64,000 nucleotides of DNA from Magnetococcales bacterium (GTDB lineage: Bacteria; Pseudomonadota; Magnetococcia; Magnetococcales; Magnetaquicoccaceae): contig JADGAR010000018.1 in NCBI GenBank assembly GCA_015231915.1, forward strand, positions 4,457 to 68,456. The letters are read 5' to 3'. Every line of letters begins with the position of its first letter. The stretch's first letter is position 1. The translations under genes and the position numbers were made by a program. The notes beneath the pieces were generated by a model. That model was not told the DNA's origin. It made no database searches and saw only the letters and a program-made list of their open reading frames with translations. Positions 2-14,915 of this stretch are shown here, piece after piece.

Positions 2-1117
2 CATGCCCGGGAACAGGAATGGAACCGGCGTTTCGAGGTCGAGGCCGAAGAGTTGTGCCGGGCCAGTCTGGCCCACTCCCGGTTGCAGAGCCTCTTTGCC
101 CCCATGGTGGTGCTGGCCGGCAGCATCGGCGGATGGATCATCCTGGCCCACGGCGGCTACGAGGTGGCTGCCGGTCGGTTGACCATGGGGGATTTCGTGG
201 CCTTTTCCGGTTATCTCGCCATGCTGATCTGGCCCACGGTGGGCTTCGGCTGGATCCTGTCGGTGATGCAGCGCGGCCTGGCCGCCCTGGACCGCATCAA
301 TCGGGTCATGGACGCCAGGCCGTTCCTCTCCCCGGAGGCAGCCGCCGGGGCGGATCCGGGAGGACGCTGGCCGGGCGCTATCTCCATACGCGGCCTGAGG
401 TTCGCCTATCGTCCCTCAGACCCGGTGTTGCGCGACATCTCCCTGGAGATCCCCCCAGGCACCCTTATCGGACTGGCGGGCCGGGTGGGATGCGGCAAAT
501 CCACGCTGCTCCACCTGCTGGCCCGGATTCAGCCTGCCCCGCCGGGAACGATCCTCATGGATGGCCGGGAGTTGAGCACCATCCCGGAGGCGGAGTTGCG
601 GCGCAATCTCGCCATGGCCCCCCAGGAGAGTTTTCTGTTTTCCATCCCCCTGGACAAGAATATCGGTTTCGGGACCGCCGCCCCGGAATCGATCCGGGAG
701 GCGTTGCGGGTGGCAGCCCTCGAGGAAGAGGCCCTGGCTTTTCCCCAGGGGCTGGAGACCCTGATCGGCGAGCGCGGCATCACCCTGTCCGGGGGACAGC
801 GGCAGCGGGCCGCCCTGGCGCGTGCCCTGGTGGGCGATCCGGCGATCCTTCTGCTGGATGATGTCTTCTCCCATGTGGACGCCCGTACCGAGGAGCGGAT
901 CCTCGACAATCTGCGCCTGCTCAAGCGGCGGCATACCGTGGTGATGGTGTGTCACCGGGTGGCGGCGCTCAAGCACGCGGATCGGATCTGCCTGCTGGAA
1001 AACGGCGGGGTGGCCGCGTGGGGAACCCACGAGGAGTTGTTGAATTCCATGCAGCTGTATCGGGATCTTCATGACAGCATGAGTCGCGCCGAGGCCCTGG
1101 AGGCCTTGGCAGGATGA
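2..1117 (+). CDS. ABC exporter subunit (TMD+NBD), 5'-truncated by window edge; MdlA/TM287-like degenerate half
   Basis: Frame open from base 2; TM helices, then Walker A GRVGCGKST, signature LSGGQRQR, Walker B LLLDD (Asp in place of catalytic Glu), H-loop VCHR. Confidence 0.92.
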   Translation, partial: HAREQEWNRRFEVEAEELCRASLAHSRLQSLFAPMVVLAGSIGGWIILAHGGYEVAAGRLTMGDFVAFSGYLAMLIWPTVGFGWILSVMQRGLAALDRINRVMDARPFLSPEAAAGADPGGRWPGAISIRGLRFAYRPSDPVLRDISLEIPPGTLIGLAGRVGCGKSTLLHLLARIQPAPPGTILMDGRELSTIPEAELRRNLAMAPQESFLFSIPLDKNIGFGTAAPESIREALRVAALEEEALAFPQGLETLIGERGITLSGGQRQRAALARALVGDPAILLLDDVFSHVDARTEERILDNLRLLKRRHTVVMVCHRVAALKHADRICLLENGGVAAWGTHEELLNSMQLYRDLHDSMSRAEALEALAG

Positions 1118-2904
1118 TGCCCGCGGTGACATCGGACACCGAGGAGACCCGCTACGGGGCCTTCTGGGACGTAAAGCTGATGGCCCGTTTTCTGGGCTAT
1201 GCCCGTCCGCATCGCCGCTGGGTGACGATCGCGCTGCTGTTGCCGCCCCTGGGCGCCTTGTCGCAATTCGCCCAGCCGCTTTTGATCCAGCAGGCGGTGG
1301 ACCGCCATATCGTCACCGGCGATCTGGAGGGGTTGCCCGGAATGCTGGCCATCCTGGCGGGATTGATCCTGGCGCAGTTTGGCATCGGCACATTGCAGTT
1401 CATGGTGAATGCCCTGTTGGGACAACGGGTGGTGCGGGATCTGCGCCGGGAGCTGTTTGCCCATCTGCTTGCCATGGATGCGCAGTTCTTCGCCCGCAAT
1501 CCCAGCGGCACCCTCACCAACCGGGTGGCCAACGATGCGGAGGCGGTCAGTCAGATGGTCAGCTCCGGCCTGGTCAACCTGGCCGGGGACCTGTTGCTGC
1601 TCTTCGCCCTCGCTGCGGGCATGGTGGTGTTGTCGCCGGGTCTTTCCCTGATGGTATTGGCCATCATGCCGGTGGTGATTCTGATCGCCTTTCGGGTGAC
1701 CCGGCGCATGCGCCTGATCCAGCGTCAGGGGACGCTCTTGCAGGCCCGCATGGCGGCGCGCATCACCGAGGAGAGCGAGGGACGGGATGTGATGCGGCTG
1801 TTCCATCGCGCCGAGGCGGCGGCTGCCGATTTCGACCGGCTCAACCGCGCCCATCGGGAAAATGCCGACAAAAGCAATTTTCTGGAGGCGTTCCAATTCA
1901 GTTTCGTCGAGGGCGCCTCCACCGCGCTGGTGGCGTTCCTGTTCTGGTACGGCTCCCATCTGATGTCCGGCGAGGCGGTGACCATCGGCATCCTGACCGC
2001 GTTCATCGACTCGGTGCGGCGACTGTTCTTTCCGATCCGGGACCTGGCGGGCAAGTTCACCACCATGCAGTCGGCCATGAGCGCCCTGGAACGGATCTTC
2101 ACCCTCCTGGACACCAGGCCTGCCATCGTGGATCCGGCAAGGCCCGTTGCGGCAGGGGCGATACGCGGGGAACTGCGGCTTGACCAAGTCACCTTCCGCT
2201 ATGGGGAGGAGCCGGTGTTGAGCGATCTTTCCTGCCGGATCCGTCCTGGCGAACGGGCCGCCCTGGTGGGACCCACCGGTGCGGGCAAGAGCACCCTGAT
2301 CAAGCTGCTCAACCGCACCCATGACCCGCTCTCCGGGAGCGTGACCATCGACGGGATCGATGTCCGGGAGATGGCCCTGGGGGAGCTGCGCCGCATGGTG
2401 GGGGTGGTGCAGCAGGAGACCTTTCTGTTTTCCGGGACCATTGCCGACAATATCGGTCTGTTCGATCCCGGCATCACCCGTGCGCGCATCGAGCGCGCCG
2501 CCGGGGAGACCGGCGCCTGGGAGTTCATTCGCGCCCTGCCTGGGGGGCTGGATACGGAGCTGACCGAGCGGGGCGGCAATCTTTCCGTCGGCCAGCGGCA
2601 GCTGTTGGGCATCACGCGAATCTTCGCCTTCGATCCCCCGGTGCTGGTCATGGACGAGGCCACCAGTTCGGTGGATGCGGTGAGCGAGCGGCTGATCCAG
2701 GCTGCCCTGGAGCGGCTGATGGCCAACCGCACCTCCCTGGTGATCGCCCATCGCCTCTCCACCATCCGTCACGCGGATCGGATCATCGTCCTCTCCCGTG
2801 GCCGTGTGGTGGAGGAGGGGAGTCATGCCGAACTGCTGGCGCGCAAGGGTCTGTTCGCCACGTTGTATGCCCTGCAGTTCCGGGGCGCGGATCCGGCCAC
2901 ATAA
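1114..2904 (+). CDS. ABC exporter subunit (TMD+NBD), MdlB/TM288-like partner
   Basis: 596 aa; six-TM domain, Walker A GPTGAGKST, signature LSVGQRQLL, Walker B VMDEATS, IAHR; ATGA overlap with upstream gene. Confidence 0.93.
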   Translation: MMPAVTSDTEETRYGAFWDVKLMARFLGYARPHRRWVTIALLLPPLGALSQFAQPLLIQQAVDRHIVTGDLEGLPGMLAILAGLILAQFGIGTLQFMVNALLGQRVVRDLRRELFAHLLAMDAQFFARNPSGTLTNRVANDAEAVSQMVSSGLVNLAGDLLLLFALAAGMVVLSPGLSLMVLAIMPVVILIAFRVTRRMRLIQRQGTLLQARMAARITEESEGRDVMRLFHRAEAAAADFDRLNRAHRENADKSNFLEAFQFSFVEGASTALVAFLFWYGSHLMSGEAVTIGILTAFIDSVRRLFFPIRDLAGKFTTMQSAMSALERIFTLLDTRPAIVDPARPVAAGAIRGELRLDQVTFRYGEEPVLSDLSCRIRPGERAALVGPTGAGKSTLIKLLNRTHDPLSGSVTIDGIDVREMALGELRRMVGVVQQETFLFSGTIADNIGLFDPGITRARIERAAGETGAWEFIRALPGGLDTELTERGGNLSVGQRQLLGITRIFAFDPPVLVMDEATSSVDAVSERLIQAALERLMANRTSLVIAHRLSTIRHADRIIVLSRGRVVEEGSHAELLARKGLFATLYALQFRGADPAT

Positions 2905-3647: not shown

Positions 3648-6600
3648 TCATCGGGTCAAGGTAACGGTTCCCGTGCTGAAGGCAATGGAGTTGATCATGC
3701 CGGGCAGGTAATAGTCGAAGCGGATCGAGGTCGGAATCGTCTTGCTGTTGGCGCTGAACTGATCCGTGACGCCGTTGGCCTGCGCGGTCGCCTTGAGCGC
3801 GTTGTGGCGATCCAGGGCATTGGATGGGGTCAGCCCCAGGGTGGAACCCAGGACATGCGGTGTCGGCCCCATGCCGCCCCCGCCGGTGAAGAAGGCCAGG
3901 GAGCCATCGGTCTTCAGGAGGGTCAGGGCACCATTGTAGCTGGACAAGAGCGTGCTCAGATTCATGCTGATGTTTGGCAGCATTTCCAGATGCAATACCT
4001 CCACCGTGGAGTTGGCCACGTCGATGCCAATGGTCTTGGCCGTATTGTCCACGGAAGGCTTCAACCGTATCCGCACATCGGTGGTGTAGTCCGTGGCAAA
4101 GGGGGCGAAGGTGTTGAAGACACTGTCGAACACGGCGGCCACCGAGGCCGGCAGGCGGTTGTACATTCCCTCGATCAGCCCGATGCGGGCCATGATGCGG
4201 ATGACCGTCGGGTCGTCAGCGGGCAGGATCTCCACGGTCAACCGCTTGACCACCTCGTTGACCGCATTGGTGAAGGCGCCGCCCGTGGTGAATTGCTGGC
4301 CCAGCTTGCCCAGGATCAGGGTCACGATATCGGAATTGGTCAGCACCTTGCTGGATGGGTTGGCGTTCATGGTGGAAAGGATGCTCTTGAAGAGGGTCTC
4401 GGCATTGCTCTTGATCGTGGCCGCATTCGGCACGTCTGCGGCGGAATCCAGGGAGAAGGGCCTGGCCACCACGGTGATGGTGAAGCTCTTGGAAAACGTA
4501 TTGCTGCCCGAGTCGGTCACCTGGATGGTGACGCTGTAACTGCCCGCCACCGGGGTGGCGCCGGTGCGGACGGTGAGATAAGCACCGCTGGCGTTGCTGC
4601 GCACCGCGAACAGACTGCTCGCGTCGGTGGTGATGGCATAGGTGAAGGTATCGGACGGATTGTTGATGTCCGGATCCGTGGGCGTGATGGTCGCGATCAC
4701 CGAACCCGGATCGGCATCTTCGTAGAAACTGGTTCCGCTCAGGGTGAGGTCGGTCGGGGCATCGCTGACCGCAGCCACGCTGAAGGTGATGGAAGTGGAT
4801 GCGGTCTTGGCGCCTCCCGACCCGGTGAACCCCATGTCGGAAACCGTCACCGAGACGGTCTCCGAGCCGTTGTAGTCCTGATCGCCCTGGTAGGTGAAAC
4901 TGCCGATGGCGGCGCTCAAGTTGGCCAGGGTCCCGGTGAAGATCACGGTGGAGAGGTTGTTGGCCGTGGTGAGCGAGACCGAACCATTGGTTACCGTGAC
5001 CTTGCCGTGCAGAGCGGTCAGGGTGGCCTGCATGGTGCCTGCGGCGGCATCCACATCGGCCACGCTCCAGCCGGTGATGGTGGCGGCTGTGTCCTCGGTC
5101 ACCGCAGCGGTCGGCGCGGCGGTGCCGGAAATGACCGGGGCGTCGTTGACCGCCGCCACGGTGAATGTCATGGTGCCGGTGGCGTTTTTCGGTACCACGG
5201 GACTCTCGTCGCCAACATAGCCCTGGTCGTTGATGGTGACCGTGACGGTCTCCGCGCCGTTGGCGTCCTGATTGCCCAGATAGGTGAGGGTCGCCAGGGC
5301 GGTGTTGACATTGGTCAGGGTCCCGGTGAAGACCATGCTGGAGGCGTTGTTGGCCCCGGAGGTGAAAGTCAGTCCCGTGGTGGAGGCCAGGGTCACCTTG
5401 CCGATGGTGGCCGTCAGGGTGATCTCCACAGGATTGGTGCCGGCATCCACATCCGCCACGCTGACGCCGGTGATGGTCATGCTGGTGTCCTCGGTGGCGC
5501 TCAGGCCGGTGGGAACGGTCACGGTCGGGGCGTCGTTGACCGCGACGATGGTGAAATTCAACGTGGAGTTGGCGCTCAAGGCGCCGCCCGAGCCGATGCT
5601 GCCCTGATCGGAAACCGTCAGGGTGACGGTTTCCGCGCCGTTGGCGTTGCTGTTGCTCAGATAGCTCAGGCCGGTCAGTGCGGTGTTCACATCGGTCACC
5701 GTTCCGGTGAAGACCATGCTCGAAGAGTTGTTGGCGCCCGAGGAGAAGCTCAGGCCAGTGGTGGTGCTCAGGGTCAATTTGCCCTTGGTGGCGGAGAGGG
5801 TGACCTGGATCGGGTTGCTGGCGATGGTGTTGGTCGGGACGGTCATGTCTACGTCGGCCACGCTCCAGCCGACGATGGTGGCCGCCACATCCTCGCTGAC
5901 CGAGGGGGTCGTGGGGGTGGTGATGGTCGGGGTGTCGTTGACCGCCGCGATGGTGAAGGTCACGGTGGCGGTGGCGGACTGGGCGCCGCCCGCGCCGGTG
6001 TTGCCCTGGTCGCTGATTGACAGGGTGATGGTCTCCGAGCCGTTGTAATTCGCACTGCCCTGATAGCTCATGCCGGTCAGGGCGGTGTTCAATTGCGTCT
6101 TGGTGCCGGTGAAGACCATGCTCGCCGAGCCGTTGGCCCCGGAGGTGATCGACACCCCGGAGCCGCCACCCAGGGTCATGGTCCCGTTGGTCACCGACAG
6201 GGAGGCCTGCATGGTCCCGCCGCTGTCGTCCTCGTCCGCCACGCTGAAGGAGACCGCAAGCGCGGTGTCTTCGGTGGCCAGGGCGGTCAGCGAGGCGGCG
6301 GAGGGGGCGGTGATGACCGGCGCGTCGTTGACATTGGTGACCGAGATGCTCACCGCCTGACTGGCGGTCAGGCTGCCCGATCCGTTGTCCGTGGCCACCA
6401 TCGTGACCTCGTAGACGTTGTCGGTGTTGGCGTCCGTGGGCACCTCGTAATTGGGCGCGGTCTTGAAGGTCACGACGCCGCCGGCGGTGATGTCGAACTT
6501 GGATTCGTCCGCGCCCGTGCCGGCGAAGGACCAGGTGATGGCATCGCTTTCCGGATCCGTGGCGGTGGCCGCATAGGCGGTGCCGGTGCCGTTTTCGGCA

Positions 6601-9600
6601 AAGGAGGCGGTGGTCGCGGAGGTGATGGTGGGTGCGTCGTTGGCGCCGTTGATGGTGACGGTCAGCACCCCGATGTCCGTCAGGGCGCCGTCGGAGACGG
6701 TATAATTGAAACTGTCGGTGGTGGATTGACCCGACTTGAGGGCTTGCACCACGGCGTTGGTATCGTCCACCACATAGGTGAAGACGCCCGTGGCGGGGGT
6801 GAGGGTCAGCGTGCCGTAGGTGCCTGTGGAGACATAATCGGCCCCCGACGCGGTGGCGGCGGTTCCGCTTCCTTCGACGTTGCCCGTGCGCAGTGAGGTG
6901 ACCGACAGGGCGTTGCTTTCGACATCGGTGTCGTTGGTCAGGACATTGCCGGTGGCGTTGGCACCGGCGGTGCCATTGTTGGTGCCGCCTTTCTCCGTTG
7001 CGGATGCGGTGTCGTTCACCGCCACCGGAGCGTCGTTGGTCCCGTTGATGGTGATGGTCAACAGCGCCGTATCGGTGAGTGAACCGTCCGAAGCAGTGTA
7101 GTTGTAGTATTCGGTCAGGGATTGACCCGACTGCAGGGCCTGTACCGTGACATTGCTCTCATCGACGGTATAGGTGTAGGCCCCGGTGCTGGCGATGGTC
7201 AGGGAACCATAGGTGCCTGTCAAGGCCGCGCCCACCGTGCCCGCCGTGCCGCTCCCCTCGGTATTGCCGGTGCGGATCGCGGCAACGGTCAGGGTGGTGC
7301 CGGTATCGGCATCGGTATCGCTGCTGGTGAGGACGTTGCCGGTAGCCTGGGTGCCTGCCGTGCCGTTGAGGGTTCCGCCGGCCTCGGTCGCGGTGCCGGT
7401 GTCGTTGGCGGCCACCGGGTTTTCGTTGGCGCCGTTGATGGTGATGGTCAACACCCCGATGTCGGAAAGGGAACCGTCGGACGCCGTATAATTGAAACTT
7501 TCCGTGATGCTTTGTCCCACAGCCAGGGCATTCACCGTGGCATTGGTGTTGTCGATAACGTAAGTATAAGAACCATCGGTGGCCATGGTGAGGGAACCAT
7601 AGGTGCCCACCAGGGTCGCGCCTGGGGTCGCCGCGGTGCCCAGCCCCTCGGAGGCGCCGAGCCGGAAGGCGGATACGGTCAGGGAGGCATGACTCGTGTC
7701 CACGTCGGTGTCGTTGTCGAGCACGTTGCCCGTGGCATTGGTCCCAGGCGTGGCATTGTTCACGCCGCCCGCCTCGGTGGCGCTGCCGGTGTCGTTCACC
7801 GCCACCGGGGCGTCGTTGGCGCCGTTGATGGTGACGGCCAGGACCGCCATGTCGGTCAGGGTGCCGTCCGTGACGGTGTAATTGAACGATTCGCTGAGGG
7901 TCTGTCCCGGGGCGAGGGCCTGCACTGTGGCATTGCTTTCGTCGATCACATAGGTATAGGTGCCGCCTGCGGCCACGGTCAAGGCACCGTAGGTCCCGGT
8001 CAGGGCGGCCCCGACCGTCCCTGCAGTGCCGCTCCCCTCGACGCCGCCGGTACGGATGGCGCTCACTTGCAGCGTGGTCCCGTCGTCGGGATCGGTATCA
8101 TTGGTGAGAAGATTGCCGGTGGCGTTGCTGCCCGCCGTGCCATTGGCGGTGCCGCTGGCTTCCGTGGCGCTCCCGGTATCGTCCGAGGCCACCGGGGTGT
8201 CGTTGGCGCCATTGATGGTGATGGTCAAAAGGCCGATGTCGGTCAGGGCGCCGTCGGTAACCGTATAATTGAAGGTATCCGTGATGCTTTGCGCCGAATT
8301 CAGGGCCTGTACCGTGGGATTGGTGTCATCCACGGTATAGGAATAACTGCCATCTTCTTGCATGGTGAGGGAACCATAGGTACCGATCAGGGGCGAGGCG
8401 AGGGTGCCGGCTGAGCCGGATCCTTCGGTGCTGCCCAGCCGGATGGCGGTCACCGTGAGGGTGTCGCCCTCGACATCGGTGTCGTTGGTCAGGACATTGC
8501 CGCTGGCCGCGCTGCCCGCCGTGGCGTTGTTCGAGCCGCCTGCCTCTGTGGCGCTGCCGGTATCGTTCACAGCCACCGGGGCGTCGTTGACCGGGGTCAC
8601 CGTGACGATCTTGGTGCCGGTCAGGGCCGGGGCAATGCCGTCACTCACCGAGGTGGCAATGGAAAAGCTCAGGTCGTAGTCCTTGGCCGGGGTGAAGGTC
8701 AGCGCGGCCAGCAACGCATTGATGTCCGCCTGGGGTCCGCTGGCGCTCCACACCCCGTCCGCGAAGCTGGAGGTGGTGTTGCCGGCAGAGGCGACGGCGA
8801 GCGTACCGGCCAAAGGATCCGACAAACTCAGGGTGACGGTGAGGACCGCGTTGGCATCGTTGTCGTTCACCTCGATGGCTTTCAACTTGAACGCCTTGGC
8901 ATCCTCGGTGAACGCCTCGGCGGCGGAAAGGTTGGTGGCGGTCGGCGCATCGTTGACCGGGGTGACGGTCACCGGTTTGGAGCCGCTCAAGGTGGTCGCT
9001 CCGTCGTTCACCGAGGTGGTGATGGTGAAGTTTTTGTCGTAGTTGGCCGCCGGGGTGAACTTGACCGCTGCCAGCAGGAAGTTGATATCGTCCAGGGAGC
9101 CGCTGGCGCGCCACGTCCCGGCGCTGAAAGAAGAGGAGATGCCGGCGGGGGAACTGTCGGCAGAGAGGGTGCCCGCGCTGGCGTCGGAGAGGGTCAACGT
9201 CGCGGTGAGGGTTCCGCCCGCATCCGGGTCGCTCACCACAATGGGCACCAGCTTGAACGCAGCCGCATCCTCGGCGAACGCCTCGTTCGCCGCGAGATTG
9301 GTCGCCGTGGGCGGCTCGTTGACATCCGTGAGATTGATGGTGACGGTGGCGGTGCCGGTCGTGCCCTTGGGATCCTTCACCGTGACGCTCAGGGCAAAGC
9401 TCTTGTTGACCTCGTAATTCATCTGGGCGACATCGCTCACCGTGATGGTTCCGCTGGCGGCATCGATGGCGAACGCCGTGGATCCGGTGCCGCTCAGGCT
9501 GAAGGAGAGCGCGCCCTTGTCCGCAGGATCCGGGTCGGTTGCGGAGAGCGTCCCCACGATGGTGCCGTTGGGGCTGTTCTCCTTCAGCGTGAAGGTCTGC

Positions 9601-12092
9601 GCGTTGACCGTCGGGGGACGGTTGGATTGAAGGATCGTCGAGGTCGTCGTCGAGGTCGCGGTCGCCGGTTTCGAGGAGACGGCCTCCGGCAATCCACCTG
9701 GGGTGGTGGAGGGAATGGAGGTGGTCACGGTCGGAATGGTCGTGGTTGGCGACACCGGCGGTTTGTCGGTTGGTGGCTTGCCCGTATCGGGCACTGTCGA
9801 CTTGTCATCCTTTTTGTTGGTGTCGTCTCCGGTCGGCTTGGTATCCGTCGTCGTCTTGTCGTCCGTTGGCGGCTTCGTCTCGGTGGCGGTTTTTTTCGTC
9901 GTCTCTTGCACTTGCTCCTGCTTGACCTTGCTGGCCGCCTTGTTGGCCTCCTCGACGTTCAGGCCCAGCTTCGTGGCCTCCTGCTTCTGGACCGTCTTGA
10001 CATCCTCCGCCTTCTTTTCGATCGCCTTTTCCAGGGGGGTGCCGGATTTCACCGCCTCGACCAGCAGGGTGGTGAACTGCTTCAACGCCGTTTCGCTGCT
10101 CTTGACCGCCTCCGACTGGTGGTGATCCCCGGCCTTGCTGGTATCGATTTTGGAAAGATCGATGGTCGGTTGTAACTTGATCTTTTCTTTTTCCTGCTGA
10201 ATGGTCTGGAAAATCGCCTGTTTTTCCGTGGGCACGACCGCCTGGATCTGCTTGTTGGTCTCTGCCTGGATGATCTGCTGCTGCTGTTGCGTCTCTGCCT
10301 TGATCGCCTTGAATTGGGCAAGGGCCTCCGGGGGCAGGATATTTCTCATCTGTGTGGCGGCTTCACGCTCCGCGTTGTTTGTCTGCTGCGCCTTCTGGTT
10401 CAGGATCTCTTGCGCTTGTGTGGCCTTGTCCGCAGGCACCGCCGCAGCGATCTGTTCCGCAGTCTTTTTTGTCAGGGCAGCAGCATCTGCCGCCTGTTTC
10501 AGGAGAATCTCCTTGGCCTTTTGGAAATCCTTCTCGTTCGGCAGGGCATCCTGCAACGCCTTGAGCGTCTCCTGGGTGAGTTCGCCCGGTTTTGCATTCT
10601 TTTCCGCCAAAATGGAGGTGATCTTCTCTTTTTTCTCCTGGCCCAGATTATCCTGCAGGCTCTTTTCGGTTTCGTTGGCCAACTGGAGCGTCTTCTTCTC
10701 CTTCTCGGCCTCGATGAGGTGCAGTTTTTCCGCCGTTTCGGGGCCGAGCGTTTTTTCCAGTTTTTCGGCAGCTTCGGTGGCAGCAGTTTCTTTTTTCTGT
10801 TGTTTCTGCTCCTCGATCTCCAGGGCGGCCTCCACCTTCTTTTCGTCGCCCAGGGTCTTCAAAAGCTTCTCTTCGGCTTTCCTTTGTGCCTGTTCCTCTT
10901 TTTTGTCGCGTTCTGCTTCGGCGGCCTTGAGTTTTTTGTAGGCATCCTCGCCAAGCTCCTTCTTGAGCTTCTCTTCCACCTTGTCGAGCTTCTCGTTTTG
11001 ATCGAGCTTCTTGTCCACCGCCTTGGAGAGGTCTTCTTCGAGCTTTTTTTCCGCCTTGTCAAATACTTCCTTCATTGCCTCCGGGTTCTTGGCAAGCATT
11101 TTTTCCGCTGCGGCGACATCCTTGGCCGCCCCCTTGTCCACCAGATCCTGGGCGGCCTGTTTGATCAATTGTTGCTGGGTCTCCGGGGTGAGTTTGCGCA
11201 CTGCGGTTGCGGTATGGGAAGTCTTCAGCTCCTCCCGCGTCGCCTTGCGCACCTCGGTCTTGTCGCCGGGGGTGCCTTGCAGGATTTCGTTCTGCTTGAC
11301 GATTTGCGGGTCCTTGGAGGTGTCCGCCGCGAAGGCCTCGCGGAAGAGGGACCAGCCCGGCGAGAAATAGACCTCACCCAGAGAGGCGCTCTTGCCGCTG
11401 GCCAGGCGTTCTTCCATCCAGACCAGCACCTCCTTTTTCAGGGTGATCACATCGATTTTGCCCCCATTGCCCAGGCGCGCGAACCCCTCGGTGCCGCGCA
11501 CCCCCAGGGTGGCCGAAGGGGTCGTCACCTTGAAGGGCCGGTTCTGAAGCTGTGCCAGGCGACCGGAGGTGAATTTGATCATGCCTTTCGTCATGTCGAG
11601 CGCGCCATTGCCGCTCTGATCTTTCATGGAATACTGGTATTCCTGGACCAGAAATTCGCTTTCCGGGCCAAGGGCGATGACTGCCTTGTCTTTCATTTTC
11701 ATGACGATCCGGCCTTCCGTGCCGGTGACGATCCGGTCGCCCTTGAACAAAGGATCGTTCTCGCTCAAGGTACGCTTGACCTTGTCGGTTTCGGCGAAGA
11801 CCAGTCCCTTGAACTGCACCACCGTGCCCACCTCCTCGCGCTTGGGGCCGGTATCCGCTGCGGCTGCGGCAGCGGCAGGGGTTTGGGCTTCGGCGGTTTT
11901 CTGTTCGCCCTCTGCCTGTTCCTCCCTGGCGGCGCTCTTGGCATCTGGACGGGCGACCTTGGCCCGTTCCAGGACGATGGCTCTGGTCTTGTCCGAGGAG
12001 TCCGGCCCCAGCAGGAAATAACCGCCCGCGAGTGCCACGCATGTCAGCACCAGGATCGCGATCAGCCATTTATTGCGCAGCAGATTGCCCAT
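3648..12092 (-). CDS. Giant membrane-anchored FecR-domain, cadherin/Ig-repeat (VCBS-like) surface protein, 2814 aa
   Basis: N-terminal hydrophobic helix; FecR motifs (GDRIVTG...FKVTTPSATLGVRGT); K/E/Q/A helical region; P/T linker; cadherin motifs (ENSPNGTIVGTLSATDPD, APNYE); many NDAP-initiated Ig-like repeats. Confidence 0.9.
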   Translation of the reverse strand: MGNLLRNKWLIAILVLTCVALAGGYFLLGPDSSDKTRAIVLERAKVARPDAKSAAREEQAEGEQKTAEAQTPAAAAAAADTGPKREEVGTVVQFKGLVFAETDKVKRTLSENDPLFKGDRIVTGTEGRIVMKMKDKAVIALGPESEFLVQEYQYSMKDQSGNGALDMTKGMIKFTSGRLAQLQNRPFKVTTPSATLGVRGTEGFARLGNGGKIDVITLKKEVLVWMEERLASGKSASLGEVYFSPGWSLFREAFAADTSKDPQIVKQNEILQGTPGDKTEVRKATREELKTSHTATAVRKLTPETQQQLIKQAAQDLVDKGAAKDVAAAEKMLAKNPEAMKEVFDKAEKKLEEDLSKAVDKKLDQNEKLDKVEEKLKKELGEDAYKKLKAAEAERDKKEEQAQRKAEEKLLKTLGDEKKVEAALEIEEQKQQKKETAATEAAEKLEKTLGPETAEKLHLIEAEKEKKTLQLANETEKSLQDNLGQEKKEKITSILAEKNAKPGELTQETLKALQDALPNEKDFQKAKEILLKQAADAAALTKKTAEQIAAAVPADKATQAQEILNQKAQQTNNAEREAATQMRNILPPEALAQFKAIKAETQQQQQIIQAETNKQIQAVVPTEKQAIFQTIQQEKEKIKLQPTIDLSKIDTSKAGDHHQSEAVKSSETALKQFTTLLVEAVKSGTPLEKAIEKKAEDVKTVQKQEATKLGLNVEEANKAASKVKQEQVQETTKKTATETKPPTDDKTTTDTKPTGDDTNKKDDKSTVPDTGKPPTDKPPVSPTTTIPTVTTSIPSTTPGGLPEAVSSKPATATSTTTSTILQSNRPPTVNAQTFTLKENSPNGTIVGTLSATDPDPADKGALSFSLSGTGSTAFAIDAASGTITVSDVAQMNYEVNKSFALSVTVKDPKGTTGTATVTINLTDVNEPPTATNLAANEAFAEDAAAFKLVPIVVSDPDAGGTLTATLTLSDASAGTLSADSSPAGISSSFSAGTWRASGSLDDINFLLAAVKFTPAANYDKNFTITTSVNDGATTLSGSKPVTVTPVNDAPTATNLSAAEAFTEDAKAFKLKAIEVNDNDANAVLTVTLSLSDPLAGTLAVASAGNTTSSFADGVWSASGPQADINALLAALTFTPAKDYDLSFSIATSVSDGIAPALTGTKIVTVTPVNDAPVAVNDTGSATEAGGSNNATAGSAASGNVLTNDTDVEGDTLTVTAIRLGSTEGSGSAGTLASPLIGTYGSLTMQEDGSYSYTVDDTNPTVQALNSAQSITDTFNYTVTDGALTDIGLLTITINGANDTPVASDDTGSATEASGTANGTAGSNATGNLLTNDTDPDDGTTLQVSAIRTGGVEGSGTAGTVGAALTGTYGALTVAAGGTYTYVIDESNATVQALAPGQTLSESFNYTVTDGTLTDMAVLAVTINGANDAPVAVNDTGSATEAGGVNNATPGTNATGNVLDNDTDVDTSHASLTVSAFRLGASEGLGTAATPGATLVGTYGSLTMATDGSYTYVIDNTNATVNALAVGQSITESFNYTASDGSLSDIGVLTITINGANENPVAANDTGTATEAGGTLNGTAGTQATGNVLTSSDTDADTGTTLTVAAIRTGNTEGSGTAGTVGAALTGTYGSLTIASTGAYTYTVDESNVTVQALQSGQSLTEYYNYTASDGSLTDTALLTITINGTNDAPVAVNDTASATEKGGTNNGTAGANATGNVLTNDTDVESNALSVTSLRTGNVEGSGTAATASGADYVSTGTYGTLTLTPATGVFTYVVDDTNAVVQALKSGQSTTDSFNYTVSDGALTDIGVLTVTINGANDAPTITSATTASFAENGTGTAYAATATDPESDAITWSFAGTGADESKFDITAGGVVTFKTAPNYEVPTDANTDNVYEVTMVATDNGSGSLTASQAVSISVTNVNDAPVITAPSAASLTALATEDTALAVSFSVADEDDSGGTMQASLSVTNGTMTLGGGSGVSITSGANGSASMVFTGTKTQLNTALTGMSYQGSANYNGSETITLSISDQGNTGAGGAQSATATVTFTIAAVNDTPTITTPTTPSVSEDVAATIVGWSVADVDMTVPTNTIASNPIQVTLSATKGKLTLSTTTGLSFSSGANNSSSMVFTGTVTDVNTALTGLSYLSNSNANGAETVTLTVSDQGSIGSGGALSANSTLNFTIVAVNDAPTVTVPTGLSATEDTSMTITGVSVADVDAGTNPVEITLTATIGKVTLASTTGLTFTSGANNASSMVFTGTLTNVNTALATLTYLGNQDANGAETVTVTINDQGYVGDESPVVPKNATGTMTFTVAAVNDAPVISGTAAPTAAVTEDTAATITGWSVADVDAAAGTMQATLTALHGKVTVTNGSVSLTTANNLSTVIFTGTLANLSAAIGSFTYQGDQDYNGSETVSVTVSDMGFTGSGGAKTASTSITFSVAAVSDAPTDLTLSGTSFYEDADPGSVIATITPTDPDINNPSDTFTYAITTDASSLFAVRSNASGAYLTVRTGATPVAGSYSVTIQVTDSGSNTFSKSFTITVVARPFSLDSAADVPNAATIKSNAETLFKSILSTMNANPSSKVLTNSDIVTLILGKLGQQFTTGGAFTNAVNEVVKRLTVEILPADDPTVIRIMARIGLIEGMYNRLPASVAAVFDSVFNTFAPFATDYTTDVRIRLKPSVDNTAKTIGIDVANSTVEVLHLEMLPNISMNLSTLLSSYNGALTLLKTDGSLAFFTGGGGMGPTPHVLGSTLGLTPSNALDRHNALKATAQANGVTDQFSANSKTIPTSIRFDYYLPGMINSIAFSTGTVTLTR
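6640..8590 (-). repeat. Five tandem ~130-aa (~390-bp) VCBS/Ig-like repeats within the giant CDS
   Basis: Units begin ND(A/T)PVA or NENPVA at about 8590, 8204, 7817, 7427 and 7037 and share GNVLxNDTD...GTYGxLT...Y(T/S)Y...FNYTxxDGxLTDxxxLTxTINGAN. Confidence 0.9.
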
Positions 12093-12182
12093 GGGTGAGA
12101 ATCCCTAGTTCAAAAGATGGACGTGGCGCTCCCCCTTGTCGGAGCGTTCCAGATTGTCAGTATACGCGCTTTTTGCAAAAGT

Positions 12183-12197
12183 CCTATTGATAATAGG
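12183..12197. promoter_or_regulatory. Inverted repeat, candidate operator upstream of the giant gene
   Basis: CCTATT-gat-AATAGG; a minus-strand TATACT -10-like hexamer lies at 12159-12164. Confidence 0.4.
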
Positions 12198-12220
12198 TAA
12201 AAAACCGTAACATCACCACC

Positions 12221-12250
12221 AAAAAAAATGCCGTCCGGCAACGGACGGCA
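12221..12250 (-). terminator. Rho-independent terminator after the secretin gene
   Basis: Minus strand TGCCGTCC-gttgcc-GGACGGCA-T8. Confidence 0.85.
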
Positions 12251-12275: not shown

Positions 12276-14915
12276 TCAATCCGTGACAAGCCGTGCCTGC
12301 AGTTCGGTGGCATCGTTCAGGCGGGCCAGGGCATCGGTGGCTTCCCTCTGCCCGGGGAAGGGTCCGGAGCGCAGGCGGGTGACCGTCTGCCCGCCTTGCA
12401 TGGTCTGCTCCGGCAGGATCGGCAGGCCGATGGCGGCCACCTGTTTGCGGATCTCTTCCACGAAGGCAGTGTCACGATAGGAGCCAAGGTCGAGATAGAA
12501 TCTCTGTGGCGGGCGCATGGCCGCTTCCGGTCCTGGCGGCGGGGCAGGGGCATGCGCCGGCGGTTCGGGCGTTGGCGGAGGGATGCGGGTCTGGCGGGAG
12601 ATATTGGCCAAACCCTCCGCACTGGTGAAATCGAGATAGGAGCCGACCGACATCGCATTGACACCTGCAGGAGGCGGAGCCGCCGGTGCGGAGGCAGCGG
12701 GTTGCGGTGCCACGGGAGCCGGAACCGGGGTTTGCGCCGCAGAGGGCGAAGCCGGGGCTGCGGGTGGGGCGGACGTGAGCGGAGTCGGGGCCAAAGCCGA
12801 AGCCGGGGCCGAAGTCGGAGTTGGCGTGGGGGCCGCAGCCGGATTGGCGCCGGGGGTGGCAGCGGCCACCGGAGCGGGTTTGGCGGGTGCAGGGGTTTTC
12901 TTCTCCCCGTCCGTGGAGACGGTTTTGCCCTTGCCGGTCTTGTCCGCAGGCTTGGCCCCGCCGGTCACCTTGTCGGAGGGGGCGGCAGGGCTGGCTGCCA
13001 CCGGCGGCTTCGGCGTGGCCGGGGCGCTCTGCGCCGATTCCTTGGTGGGTTCCACGGGACGGTTCACCCTTTCCGTGCGCGGTTTGCCATGGGTCATCAC
13101 CACCGGACGCAGGAAGATCACCAGTTCGCTCTTTCTCACCTGTTGATCCTTGCTGCCGAACATGGATCCCAGGGGACCGGGCAGTTTGGAGAGAACCGGC
13201 AGGCCGTTGGTATCTTTCTCCACGGTATCCTGCATCAGACCACCCATGACGGCCACCTGACCGCTGTGGACCCGCATGAGGGTCTCCATCTCCTTGATTT
13301 CAATCTCAGGAATGAGGTTTTGAATGTCTGCCTGCAACCCTGTCTGCAGATTTCCACCTTTCAGGGCCGGGTTCGGGTCGGACTGATAGCTGGTGATGCG
13401 GGTGATGGTGGGACGCACGTTCATGCTGACGATCCCCTCGCTGGAAATCTGCGGGGTGACCGTGATGATCAACCCTTCCGGGACCGTGTGAATCTCGGTG
13501 TCGAAGACCGGCTGCGTGGCTGCCGTGGGGGGCGTCGTGGCGTTTTCCGGGGCGGTGGTGCTCGATTTCAGGGTGAAGAAGACCCGGTTCTTGACCACTT
13601 TCAGCACGGCTGGCTGATTGTTCAGGGCCATGATCTTGGGGCTGGAGAGGACCTTGGTGTTGCCGAAGGTCTCCAGCATCTTGACCGTGGCGAAGACCGG
13701 ACCCTTGGCCTTGTTGTCCGCGCTGAAACTCGCGGGGAGATCGGCGCCGCTGCCCAGGGCGAAGCTCAGCAGTCCGCCGGTCGCCGGGAGTTGGTTGACG
13801 GCATTGTTCACCGCTCCCTTGATGCGATTATTGAAAATCATCTCCCAGTTCACCCCTTCCTGGAAGCGATCCGACAGTTCCACTTCCACCACGGTGGATT
13901 CGATCAGCACCTGGCGATGGACATTTTCCAGGACGCTGTCCAGGTAATCCTGAATCCGTTCGTGCTGGGCAGCGGTGGCGATGATGCTGATGACGCCCGC
14001 TTCGACATTGACCGAAACCAGGCCCGGTCGGTTGCCTTGTTGGGTTTTCCCCTCCATGGTCTTGCCGCCAGAGGGAGCGCCCATTCCGGACGGGGCGCCG
14101 GCGGGGATCATGAGGGCATCCAATCCGCCGACCCCGCCGCCGGTGCCGACCGCGCCGACACCAGGAGTGGCGACATCCTGCAGGAGCGGAACATCACTCC
14201 CGGTGTCCGCGCCGAGAATGGCCTGGACATTCTGGATGAGGCTCTTCCAGAACTTGCTGTCGGAGGTGGTGGTCAGGACGGTGTTGGTTTGATTGGCATC
14301 CGGCTGGGCCGAGCTGACGAAGCTGGTCTTGTTGGCCTTCTGGGTGCTGAGGTTGGTGGAGATCTTGTTGGTGCTGACCATGTTCCGCTCGATGCCGAGA
14401 TAGTCCACCTGATAGATCTTCAGGAACGGCAGATCGGGGGTGACCACGATGGTCTTGTCCTGGATCTCGTAGCGGATGCCGACCTGTTTGGCCACGCGGT
14501 CGAGGATTTTGGTCAAAGGCTGATCGATGGCGCTCAGGGTCACCCGTCCCTGGATGCCGGGGTAAACGTCAATATTTTTGTTCGCGTCCCGTGCGAGGGC
14601 GAACAGCAGGTCCCGAACCGGCATTTCCGTGACGGTAATGGTATAAACTTCCTCATGGGGAGGGGCGGTTCCTTCCGCGCTCGGGGTGGCGATAACGCCT
14701 CCCTCCTTGGTCGGCGCTGGGGTCGCGGCGATCTCCAGGGGCGGATTGGTGGGTTGCAGGAAGTGCTCCCTGGACTGCTTGATCCTGCTTTGTTCGCAGG
14801 ACGCCAAAAACAGACATGCAAGCAGCATCAAGCCTGCGTGTCGCAAGGTGGCGGTGCGTGACAAGGCGCGCTGGTACGCGATTTTTACGGTTGGCATGAG
14901 TTCTTGATGTTTCAT
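12276..14915 (-). CDS. mshL: MSHA-type (MshL-like) lipoprotein secretin with C-terminal Pro/Ala linker and SPOR domain
   Basis: Lipobox LASC (Cys codon 14796-14798); STN-like YTITVTEMPVRDLLFALARD; secretin core QVLIESTVVEV...VLSSPKIMALNNQPA...GGLMQD...ELVIFLRP; terminal FYLDLGSY...RLRSGPF. Start uncertain (14945/14915/14897). Confidence 0.85.
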   Translation of the reverse strand: MKHQELMPTVKIAYQRALSRTATLRHAGLMLLACLFLASCEQSRIKQSREHFLQPTNPPLEIAATPAPTKEGGVIATPSAEGTAPPHEEVYTITVTEMPVRDLLFALARDANKNIDVYPGIQGRVTLSAIDQPLTKILDRVAKQVGIRYEIQDKTIVVTPDLPFLKIYQVDYLGIERNMVSTNKISTNLSTQKANKTSFVSSAQPDANQTNTVLTTTSDSKFWKSLIQNVQAILGADTGSDVPLLQDVATPGVGAVGTGGGVGGLDALMIPAGAPSGMGAPSGGKTMEGKTQQGNRPGLVSVNVEAGVISIIATAAQHERIQDYLDSVLENVHRQVLIESTVVEVELSDRFQEGVNWEMIFNNRIKGAVNNAVNQLPATGGLLSFALGSGADLPASFSADNKAKGPVFATVKMLETFGNTKVLSSPKIMALNNQPAVLKVVKNRVFFTLKSSTTAPENATTPPTAATQPVFDTEIHTVPEGLIITVTPQISSEGIVSMNVRPTITRITSYQSDPNPALKGGNLQTGLQADIQNLIPEIEIKEMETLMRVHSGQVAVMGGLMQDTVEKDTNGLPVLSKLPGPLGSMFGSKDQQVRKSELVIFLRPVVMTHGKPRTERVNRPVEPTKESAQSAPATPKPPVAASPAAPSDKVTGGAKPADKTGKGKTVSTDGEKKTPAPAKPAPVAAATPGANPAAAPTPTPTSAPASALAPTPLTSAPPAAPASPSAAQTPVPAPVAPQPAASAPAAPPPAGVNAMSVGSYLDFTSAEGLANISRQTRIPPPTPEPPAHAPAPPPGPEAAMRPPQRFYLDLGSYRDTAFVEEIRKQVAAIGLPILPEQTMQGGQTVTRLRSGPFPGQREATDALARLNDATELQARLVTD

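Follow-up and report, generated by a model that had tools for sequence, protein, structure and literature searches.

A giant FecR-headed protein and its neighbouring secretin in Magnetococcales: a candidate surface-display pair

A 64,000-nucleotide stretch of the genome of a Magnetococcales bacterium (assembly GCA_015231915.1, contig JADGAR010000018.1, positions 4,457 to 68,456 of the forward strand) contains a gene for a 2814-residue protein, here called the giant, in which an N-terminal membrane segment and a FecR-type domain are joined to a long cadherin-like stalk. The whole stretch is referred to below as the window, and coordinates are counted from its first letter. By which route would such a protein reach its place in the cell envelope, and what is a FecR-type domain doing at the head of an adhesin-like chain? 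A preliminary description, made from the sequence alone, had read the protein as a trans-envelope sensor-adhesin with no recognisable secretion signal. The best explanation of the present results is that the giant and the secretin encoded immediately upstream of it make up a surface-display system of two parts that is confined to Magnetococcales. This explanation starts from the domain order of the giant, the adjacency of the two genes, the restriction of the family to Magnetococcales, the homology of its head to the head of another giant from the same genome, and the lack of a T2SSE-family ATPase gene on the contig that carries the pair.

Architecture and pairing of the giant and the secretin

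The giant gene (P0001) occupies positions 3648..12092 of the minus strand, as do all features of the pair described here, and consists of a single frame open for 2814 codons with a conserved AAGGGA ribosome-binding site just 5' of its ATG. The encoded chain begins with eight residues, including R6 and K8, followed by a signal anchor (aa 9-29; 12006..12068), which is the sole hydrophobic segment of the protein: the 19-residue Kyte-Doolittle mean reaches 2.53 at aa 10-28 and is at most 1.6 in every other window of that length. The only cysteine of the giant lies within this anchor. A basic tip and a hydrophobic stretch of about 21 residues were found at the N-terminus in all 40 family loci, with no conserved AxA cleavage site, and the segment is predicted to be an uncleaved Sec-type signal anchor. 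Pilin-like N-terminal processing was ruled out, as no G/FxxxE motif was found by direct reading. The anchor is followed by a charged, Ala-rich and variable tether (aa 30-85; 11838..12005), which shows a 16-residue indel and low conservation in the head alignment, and by the FecR-type beta domain (aa 86-235; 11388..11837). This domain is defined by a Pfam FecR match at aa 119-219 (E 2e-11 to 6e-11) and by the two head matches described in the next section. The conserved segment behind it (aa 236-299; 11196..11387) contains the invariant residues A255-A256-D257 and P262 of the head alignment.

A helical repeat region rich in Lys and Glu (aa 300-735; 9888..11195) follows, in which no Pfam family was matched. 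Autocorrelation at lags 34 (z 6.0), 69 (z 4.9) and 103 (z 3.0) revealed a period of 34 residues; units of the form xxEKxLxxxLGxE are among the repeats, and a sub-period of 11 residues (z 4.7) was also seen. Because of its very low hydrophobic content, this region is likelier to be a single-helix or hairpin spacer than a TPR-type solenoid. A Pro/Thr-rich linker recognised by composition (aa 736-821; 9630..9887) leads to the acidic stalk (aa 822-2545; 4458..9629), where Pfam and NCBIfam matches and linker motifs delimit 14 cadherin/tandem-95/VCBS modules, separated by 13 linkers of the xNDxP type and containing 161 acidic versus 36 basic residues. Beside FecR, the Pfam matches of the giant comprise Cadherin (three), Cadherin_4 (13 stretches) and Big_9, and its NCBIfam matches comprise VCBS (five) and tandem-95 repeats. 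The model NF045619, which covers the large adhesins BapA, Bap and LapF, gave 104.4 bits against a cut-off of 180, a match at the level of the repeats only.

The chain terminates in a family-specific domain (aa 2546-2814; 3651..4457) that ends in YYLPGxIxxIxFxTGxVTLTR and is kept in orthologs. A relaxed Pfam scan and a profile search of the PDB returned nothing for the C-terminal 270 residues, for which a lipid-binding fold of the YpmS/LmeA kind had earlier been suggested. No GGxGxD motif as in RTX (repeats-in-toxin) proteins and no LPxTG motif were found in a motif scan of the sequence, and no autotransporter or two-partner secretion family was among the Pfam matches. The order of parts given in the preliminary description (membrane segment, FecR domain, helical region, Pro/Thr linker, about 14 modules and a unique C-terminal domain) is thereby confirmed by the open frame and the Pfam and NCBIfam matches, as is its statement that RTX repeats, an autotransporter barrel and a sortase motif are lacking. 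Its statement that no secretion signal can be recognised does not hold, in view of the Sec-type signal anchor and the secretin gene immediately upstream.

This upstream gene (P0008; 12276..14915) encodes an 879-residue secretin of the MshL type (Pfam Secretin, E 1e-33). A lipoprotein signal peptide (14796..14915) with the lipobox LASC and the acceptor residue Cys40 was identified by direct reading and a regular expression. The N-terminal domains (14196..14558) comprise an STN/N0-like domain, weak at 22.7 bits under a cut-off of 28.4, and Secretin_N_2 (33.4 bits). The channel domain was located by Pfam at 13095..13676, and the channel half passes the MshL model TIGR02519 of NCBIfam with 254.9 bits against a cut-off of 250.2. 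A linker of about 190 residues rich in Pro and Ala joins this part to a C-terminal, peptidoglycan-binding SPOR domain (12300..12509; Pfam SPOR, E 3.6e-9). The closest relatives outside Magnetococcales are MshL proteins of about 600 residues with 38-40% identity, one of which, from Accumulibacter, lies in a full operon for the mannose-sensitive haemagglutinin (MSHA) pilus containing MshM-like, TPR, MshE, MshG and pilin-like genes. No GspE, GspF, GspC, pseudopilin, MshE, MshG, MshM, MshN or pilin genes were found beside the giant-secretin pair, and a contig-wide scan detected no T2SSE-family ATPase on the 70.9-kb contig (C43) that carries it. The secretin of the giant is an orphan with no pilus or type II secretion system (T2SS) motor genes nearby. 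Elsewhere in the genome, at least 13 T2SSE-family ATPase matches and six other secretin genes were identified, all on other contigs, and several of these other secretins do share a contig with a T2SSE ATPase.

The pairing is conserved in many genera. Of 30 related loci searched with tblastn, 27 have a secretin homolog directly upstream of the part that encodes the giant's head. Two of the exceptions (L033 and L036) have no secretin within the 1.5 kb available upstream, and the third is at a contig edge. Inspection of homolog neighbourhoods, which the preliminary description had proposed as a check, upheld the pairing: in three neighbourhoods with unrelated flanking genes only the secretin followed by the giant is kept, and the next downstream gene is always convergent. 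In the window, a gene convergent with the giant (1114-2904, plus strand) encodes a 596-residue ATP-binding cassette (ABC) exporter with ABC_membrane and ABC_tran domains. It is absent from the other contexts of the pair and therefore is probably unrelated to it. The open reading frames scanned beside the giant encode the secretin, aat, RNase PH, an Fe-S protein and the ABC exporter. Where the family is missing, its parts tend to be missing together: the genera g2 and g15 (11 genomes) contain no head module, C-terminal domain or orthologous secretin. Genus g5 keeps a related secretin with no recognisable giant. A functional coupling of the giant and secretin genes is very probable. Full-text searches of the literature found no description of a secretin paired with a FecR-headed protein or with a giant adhesin.

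Relatives of the head and composition of the family

A profile of the FecR-type head, run against the PDB, gave 5IX9 as its sole match, at a marginal E of 0.024. This structure is the N-terminal domain of the adhesin MpIBP, which has served as template for the retention module of LapA; this module keeps LapA threaded in a TolC-like pore with its head in the periplasm (bioRxiv 10.1101/198937). A closer relative was found in the same genome, outside the window. At the locus G000:C45:70085-82529, the gene G000:C45:70085-78154 encodes a giant of 2689 residues (the C45 giant) with a FecR-type head and no membrane anchor. The heads of the two giants align with E 3e-16 over 136 residues. Behind the gene of the C45 giant come a single frame of 1075 codons, in which an ABC transporter of a type I secretion system (T1SS) and a membrane-fusion protein of the HlyD type are encoded together, and, next, a TolC-like gene. 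A hydrophobic segment is likewise lacking in six other FecR-headed giants from four genomes (Kyte-Doolittle at most 1.23), and no secretin match was obtained within the roughly 6 kb fetched upstream of them. These six giants, in which the FecR-type domain lies about 100-140 residues from the N-terminus, share the N-terminal motif ...LLPD..FLL.GEY...G.DLL...GYF with the C45 giant.

Two classes of giants with homologous heads are accordingly distinguished from their sequences, one with a predicted cytoplasmic N-terminus and the other with a predicted Sec-type anchor and a secretin. Type I secretion genes for the first class were read from the neighbours of the C45 giant only. Since FecR-type heads are common on the giants of the order, including T1SS substrates, a FecR domain on an adhesin is not odd in itself, and the earlier view that an adhesin-like stalk on a FecR chain is unusual is not sustained. 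Magnetococcales seem to be unusually rich in such proteins. In the giant, the FecR domain reads as a head resembling an adhesin retention module and not as part of a sensor. No TAAG site for the protease LapG is present in the giant, which carries the invariant A-A-D after the head instead. A gene for a LapG-like cysteine protease of the BTLCP type (Peptidase_C93, 40 bits) was seen in the same genome at G000:C49:47513-47779.

The distribution of the family was examined with several searches. Homologs sharing the first 780 residues of the giant are all giant proteins of Magnetococcales. A head profile built from the first 320 residues was run against 1.84 billion protein cluster representatives; the whole head module was matched by 14 representatives only, all of 1091-5776 residues, and thousands of further proteins matched the FecR core alone. 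The FecR core was also seen in many other frames across 56 Magnetococcales genomes, many of them of 1000-7800 codons. When 185,579 species, each represented by one genome, were scanned for a pattern, 10 loci were returned, all in Magnetococcales, and about 25 of the 56 genomes of the class contain a full-length match to the head module. The full head module is restricted to Magnetococcales. In most genomes, the profile of the C-terminal domain matches the same frames as the head.

The length of the family members is highly variable. Orthologs of 907, 1091 and 1460 residues (L055:3320-6040, L056:1126-4398 and L058:1545-5924, respectively) keep the head and the C-terminal domain; FecR is their only Pfam domain and no cadherin match was obtained. 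In the 907- and 1091-residue proteins, direct reading showed only the head, a spacer that is helical or of low complexity, a single last module and the C-terminal domain. The member from Magnetococcus marinus MC-1 has 2454 residues with cadherin and PKD-like modules. What stays constant in the family is the head, the final module and the C-terminal domain, whereas the stalk ranges from one module to dozens; the cadherin stalk is thus a spacer whose length changes while the ends that flank it are kept. Among orthologs, the length of the helical region differs as well, between about 180 residues (P0007) and about 600 (P0003), which argues against a fixed periplasmic ruler and makes the earlier proposal that this segment spans the periplasm doubtful. 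Another large protein known from these bacteria is Sap, a flagellar-sheath protein of strain MO-1 described as a glycoprotein that exceeds 350 kDa and depends on Ca2+ (PMC7175107). Sap-like genes have been reported absent from Magnetofaba australis IT-1 (PMC5088516). The giant family is unlikely to be Sap, because IT-1 has a 1479-residue family member.

Proposed mode of display and competing explanations

We infer as follows how the giant is oriented in the envelope, how it passes through the secretin, how it is retained and what drives its export. The N-terminal signal anchor, left uncleaved, would direct insertion of the giant by the Sec machinery, with eight residues staying in the cytoplasm and the remainder passing into the periplasm. 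With the N-terminus anchored in the inner membrane, the C-terminus would be the sole free end, and the conserved C-terminal domain would therefore be the first part to enter the lipidated secretin dedicated to the giant. The acidic cadherin/VCBS stalk would come next, probably aided by Ca2+-dependent folding outside the cell. The FecR-type head would stay in the periplasm, under or inside the vestibule of the secretin, where it may dock on the N0/STN domain, and the chain would remain threaded through the pore. The secretin itself would be fixed to the wall by its SPOR domain. An extracellular position of the stalk is probable. The fuller reading, in which a Sec-exported adhesin tethered in the inner membrane is threaded C-terminus first through its own secretin, giving a LapA-like display through a different channel, is about evenly balanced between belief and doubt. 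A further step, taken only tentatively and on balance doubted, is that this constitutes a new display pathway: a stand-alone, wall-anchored liposecretin would export and then hold a Sec-delivered giant adhesin tethered in the inner membrane, threading would run C-terminus first and be driven by Ca2+-dependent folding outside the cell with no pilus, pseudopilus or ATPase, and the system would have arisen from the retention head of a T1SS adhesin, a signal anchor and an MshL-derived secretin.

Several observations weigh against threading through the secretin. The match of the head to 5IX9 is only marginal, and AlphaFold2 models built from four-sequence alignments have a mean predicted local distance difference test score (pLDDT) of 41.9 for the head and 42.5 for the C-terminal domain, too low for folds to be compared. 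Locus L033 has a head with no secretin in the available upstream sequence. In Magnetofaba australis IT-1 the secretin and the 1479-residue family member are on different contigs, which shows that the linkage of the two genes is strong, not absolute. (At the IT-1 loci, L042 and L058, the secretin has no giant gene behind it, and an IS110 transposase lies 4 kb upstream.) We know of no secretin that carries a threaded polypeptide or works without an inner-membrane motor. Finally, the two genes of the window are separated by a strong intrinsic terminator after the secretin gene (12221..12250, minus strand), composed of a 9-bp stem with seven G-C pairs (12250-12229) followed by T8, and the giant has its own promoter-like block; the pair are therefore neighbours whose transcription is separate or attenuated, and not a proven operon. 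Most loci of the genus have a similar terminator hairpin, and hairpins of other sequence were seen in several further genera. The terminator may favour an excess of secretin over giant, which would fit a multimeric pore holding one adhesin. The promoter-like block (12157..12211, minus strand; GTTACG-N-TTTTTTACC ... ATCAAT-GGA ... TATACT) was defined by alignment of 11 intergenic regions of the genus and is genus-wide. Its upstream repeats look like a regulator site, and no sigma-54 or sigma-28 promoter motif was seen upstream of the giant by direct reading.

Other explanations of the pair were considered. The secretin could be the outer gate of a route in the style of type II secretion, with its motor elsewhere in the genome, a cleaved signal and a product that is released or loosely bound to the surface. 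All known secretins work with an inner-membrane machine, and the ATPases and secretins on other contigs would make shared motors available. No motor gene lies beside the pair in any context read, the hydrophobic segment of about 21 residues has no conserved AxA site, and a head resembling a retention module would be pointless in a released protein, which leaves this route unlikely. The head might instead be a partner of the secretin in the manner of GspC or PilP, docking without threading while the secretin exports other cargo and the stalk takes another route or lies in an enlarged periplasm. The succession of transmembrane segment, linker, beta domain and coiled coil does mirror GspC/XcpP, and the short orthologs, with a single module and no Pfam cadherin match, are in its favour. 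However, a 14-module stalk of about 60 nm (if each module measures about 4.5 nm) does not fit the periplasm, and no other cargo gene is conserved beside the pair; docking alone is considered rather improbable.

Export by type I secretion, with an unlinked set of ABC transporter, membrane-fusion protein and TolC, is suggested by the homology of the head to the heads of T1SS giants and by the ABC exporter gene in the window. This exporter gene runs convergent to the giant and does not recur in the other contexts, the Sec-type anchor is missing from the six T1SS-type giants, no RTX or GD-rich C-terminus is present, and the conserved neighbour is a secretin and not a TolC-like protein, all of which make this route very improbable. 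Least credible is trans-envelope signalling of the FecR type, in which the stalk would sense and a signal would be passed into the cell. The Pfam FecR match speaks for it, and the weak STN-like domain of the neighbouring secretin recalls the contact between FecA and FecR. Only eight residues of the giant would be cytoplasmic, Pfam scans detected no anti-sigma domain or FecR_C in it, and the same domain heads T1SS adhesins. No sigma factor, including those of the extracytoplasmic function (ECF) type, and no TonB-dependent transducer was present among the called genes of the homolog neighbourhoods or the scanned open reading frames of the window. The sensor half of the preliminary description is not supported by these results, whereas its other half, an envelope-spanning surface adhesin with the N-terminus inside, agrees with the anchor, the head and the paired secretin.

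Comparison with known systems and significance

Among characterized systems, the closest to the proposed display by threading through the secretin are the giant adhesins LapA of Pseudomonas fluorescens and MpIBP of Marinomonas primoryensis. These share with the giant a long repeat stalk with Ca2+-binding Ig/cadherin-like modules and, judging from the marginal match to 5IX9 and the alignment with the head of the C45 giant, an N-terminal beta domain that may derive from the same origin as the retention module. The proposed final state would also be alike, with the stalk outside, the head periplasmic and the chain threaded through a dedicated pore (10.1101/198937). In contrast to LapA and MpIBP, which use a TolC-like channel, the giant is paired with a secretin, has no adjacent conserved ABC transporter or membrane-fusion protein, begins with a Sec-type signal anchor, shows no RTX repeats or T1SS C-terminus, and has the invariant A-A-D where no TAAG site was seen. 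CdrA of Pseudomonas aeruginosa offers a second parallel to the proposal, as this adhesin is kept threaded in its own outer-membrane transporter, CdrB (10.1101/198937). The CdrA/CdrB system belongs to two-partner secretion and uses an Omp85-type pore and a cysteine hook, whereas the pore here is a secretin and the single cysteine of the giant lies within the anchor; no TpsB partner or autotransporter barrel was found among the called genes neighbouring the giant.

The secretin resembles MshL of the MSHA pilus in its channel half, its lipidation and its level of identity to proteins outside the order. Many MshL proteins are lipidated. It differs in having no MshE, MshG, MshM, MshN or pilin genes nearby, in being about 270 residues longer, which includes the Pro/Ala linker and the SPOR domain, and in adjoining a giant adhesin gene. 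GspC/XcpP and PilP are inner-membrane proteins that dock on the N0 domain of secretins. By analogy, the giant would share with them a short cytoplasmic tail, one transmembrane helix, a flexible linker, a small beta domain and a coiled coil, but its beta domain is FecR-type and not HR, and carries a fused stalk that exceeds 2000 residues. The anti-sigma regulators FecR and PupR likewise carry a periplasmic FecR domain (PF04773) behind a single transmembrane helix. Unlike these regulators, the giant has no cytoplasmic anti-sigma domain, which comprises about 80 residues in FecR and PupR, no FecR_C or STN-like end, and no ECF sigma factor or TonB-dependent transducer partner among its called neighbours.

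To our knowledge, secretins are known only as gates of pili, of type II and type III machines and of filamentous phages, always with an inner-membrane motor, and the routes known to bring giant adhesins to the surface are those of type I and type V. If the proposed display is correct, a secretin serving one tethered giant adhesin would give secretins a new function and represent a new mode of anchoring. The orthologs of about 900 residues would be tractable constructs for its reconstitution. The family would also put to a natural test the question whether the working of retention modules depends on the type of channel, and since one genome encodes both a T1SS giant and a giant linked to a secretin, whose heads are homologous, the two can be compared directly.

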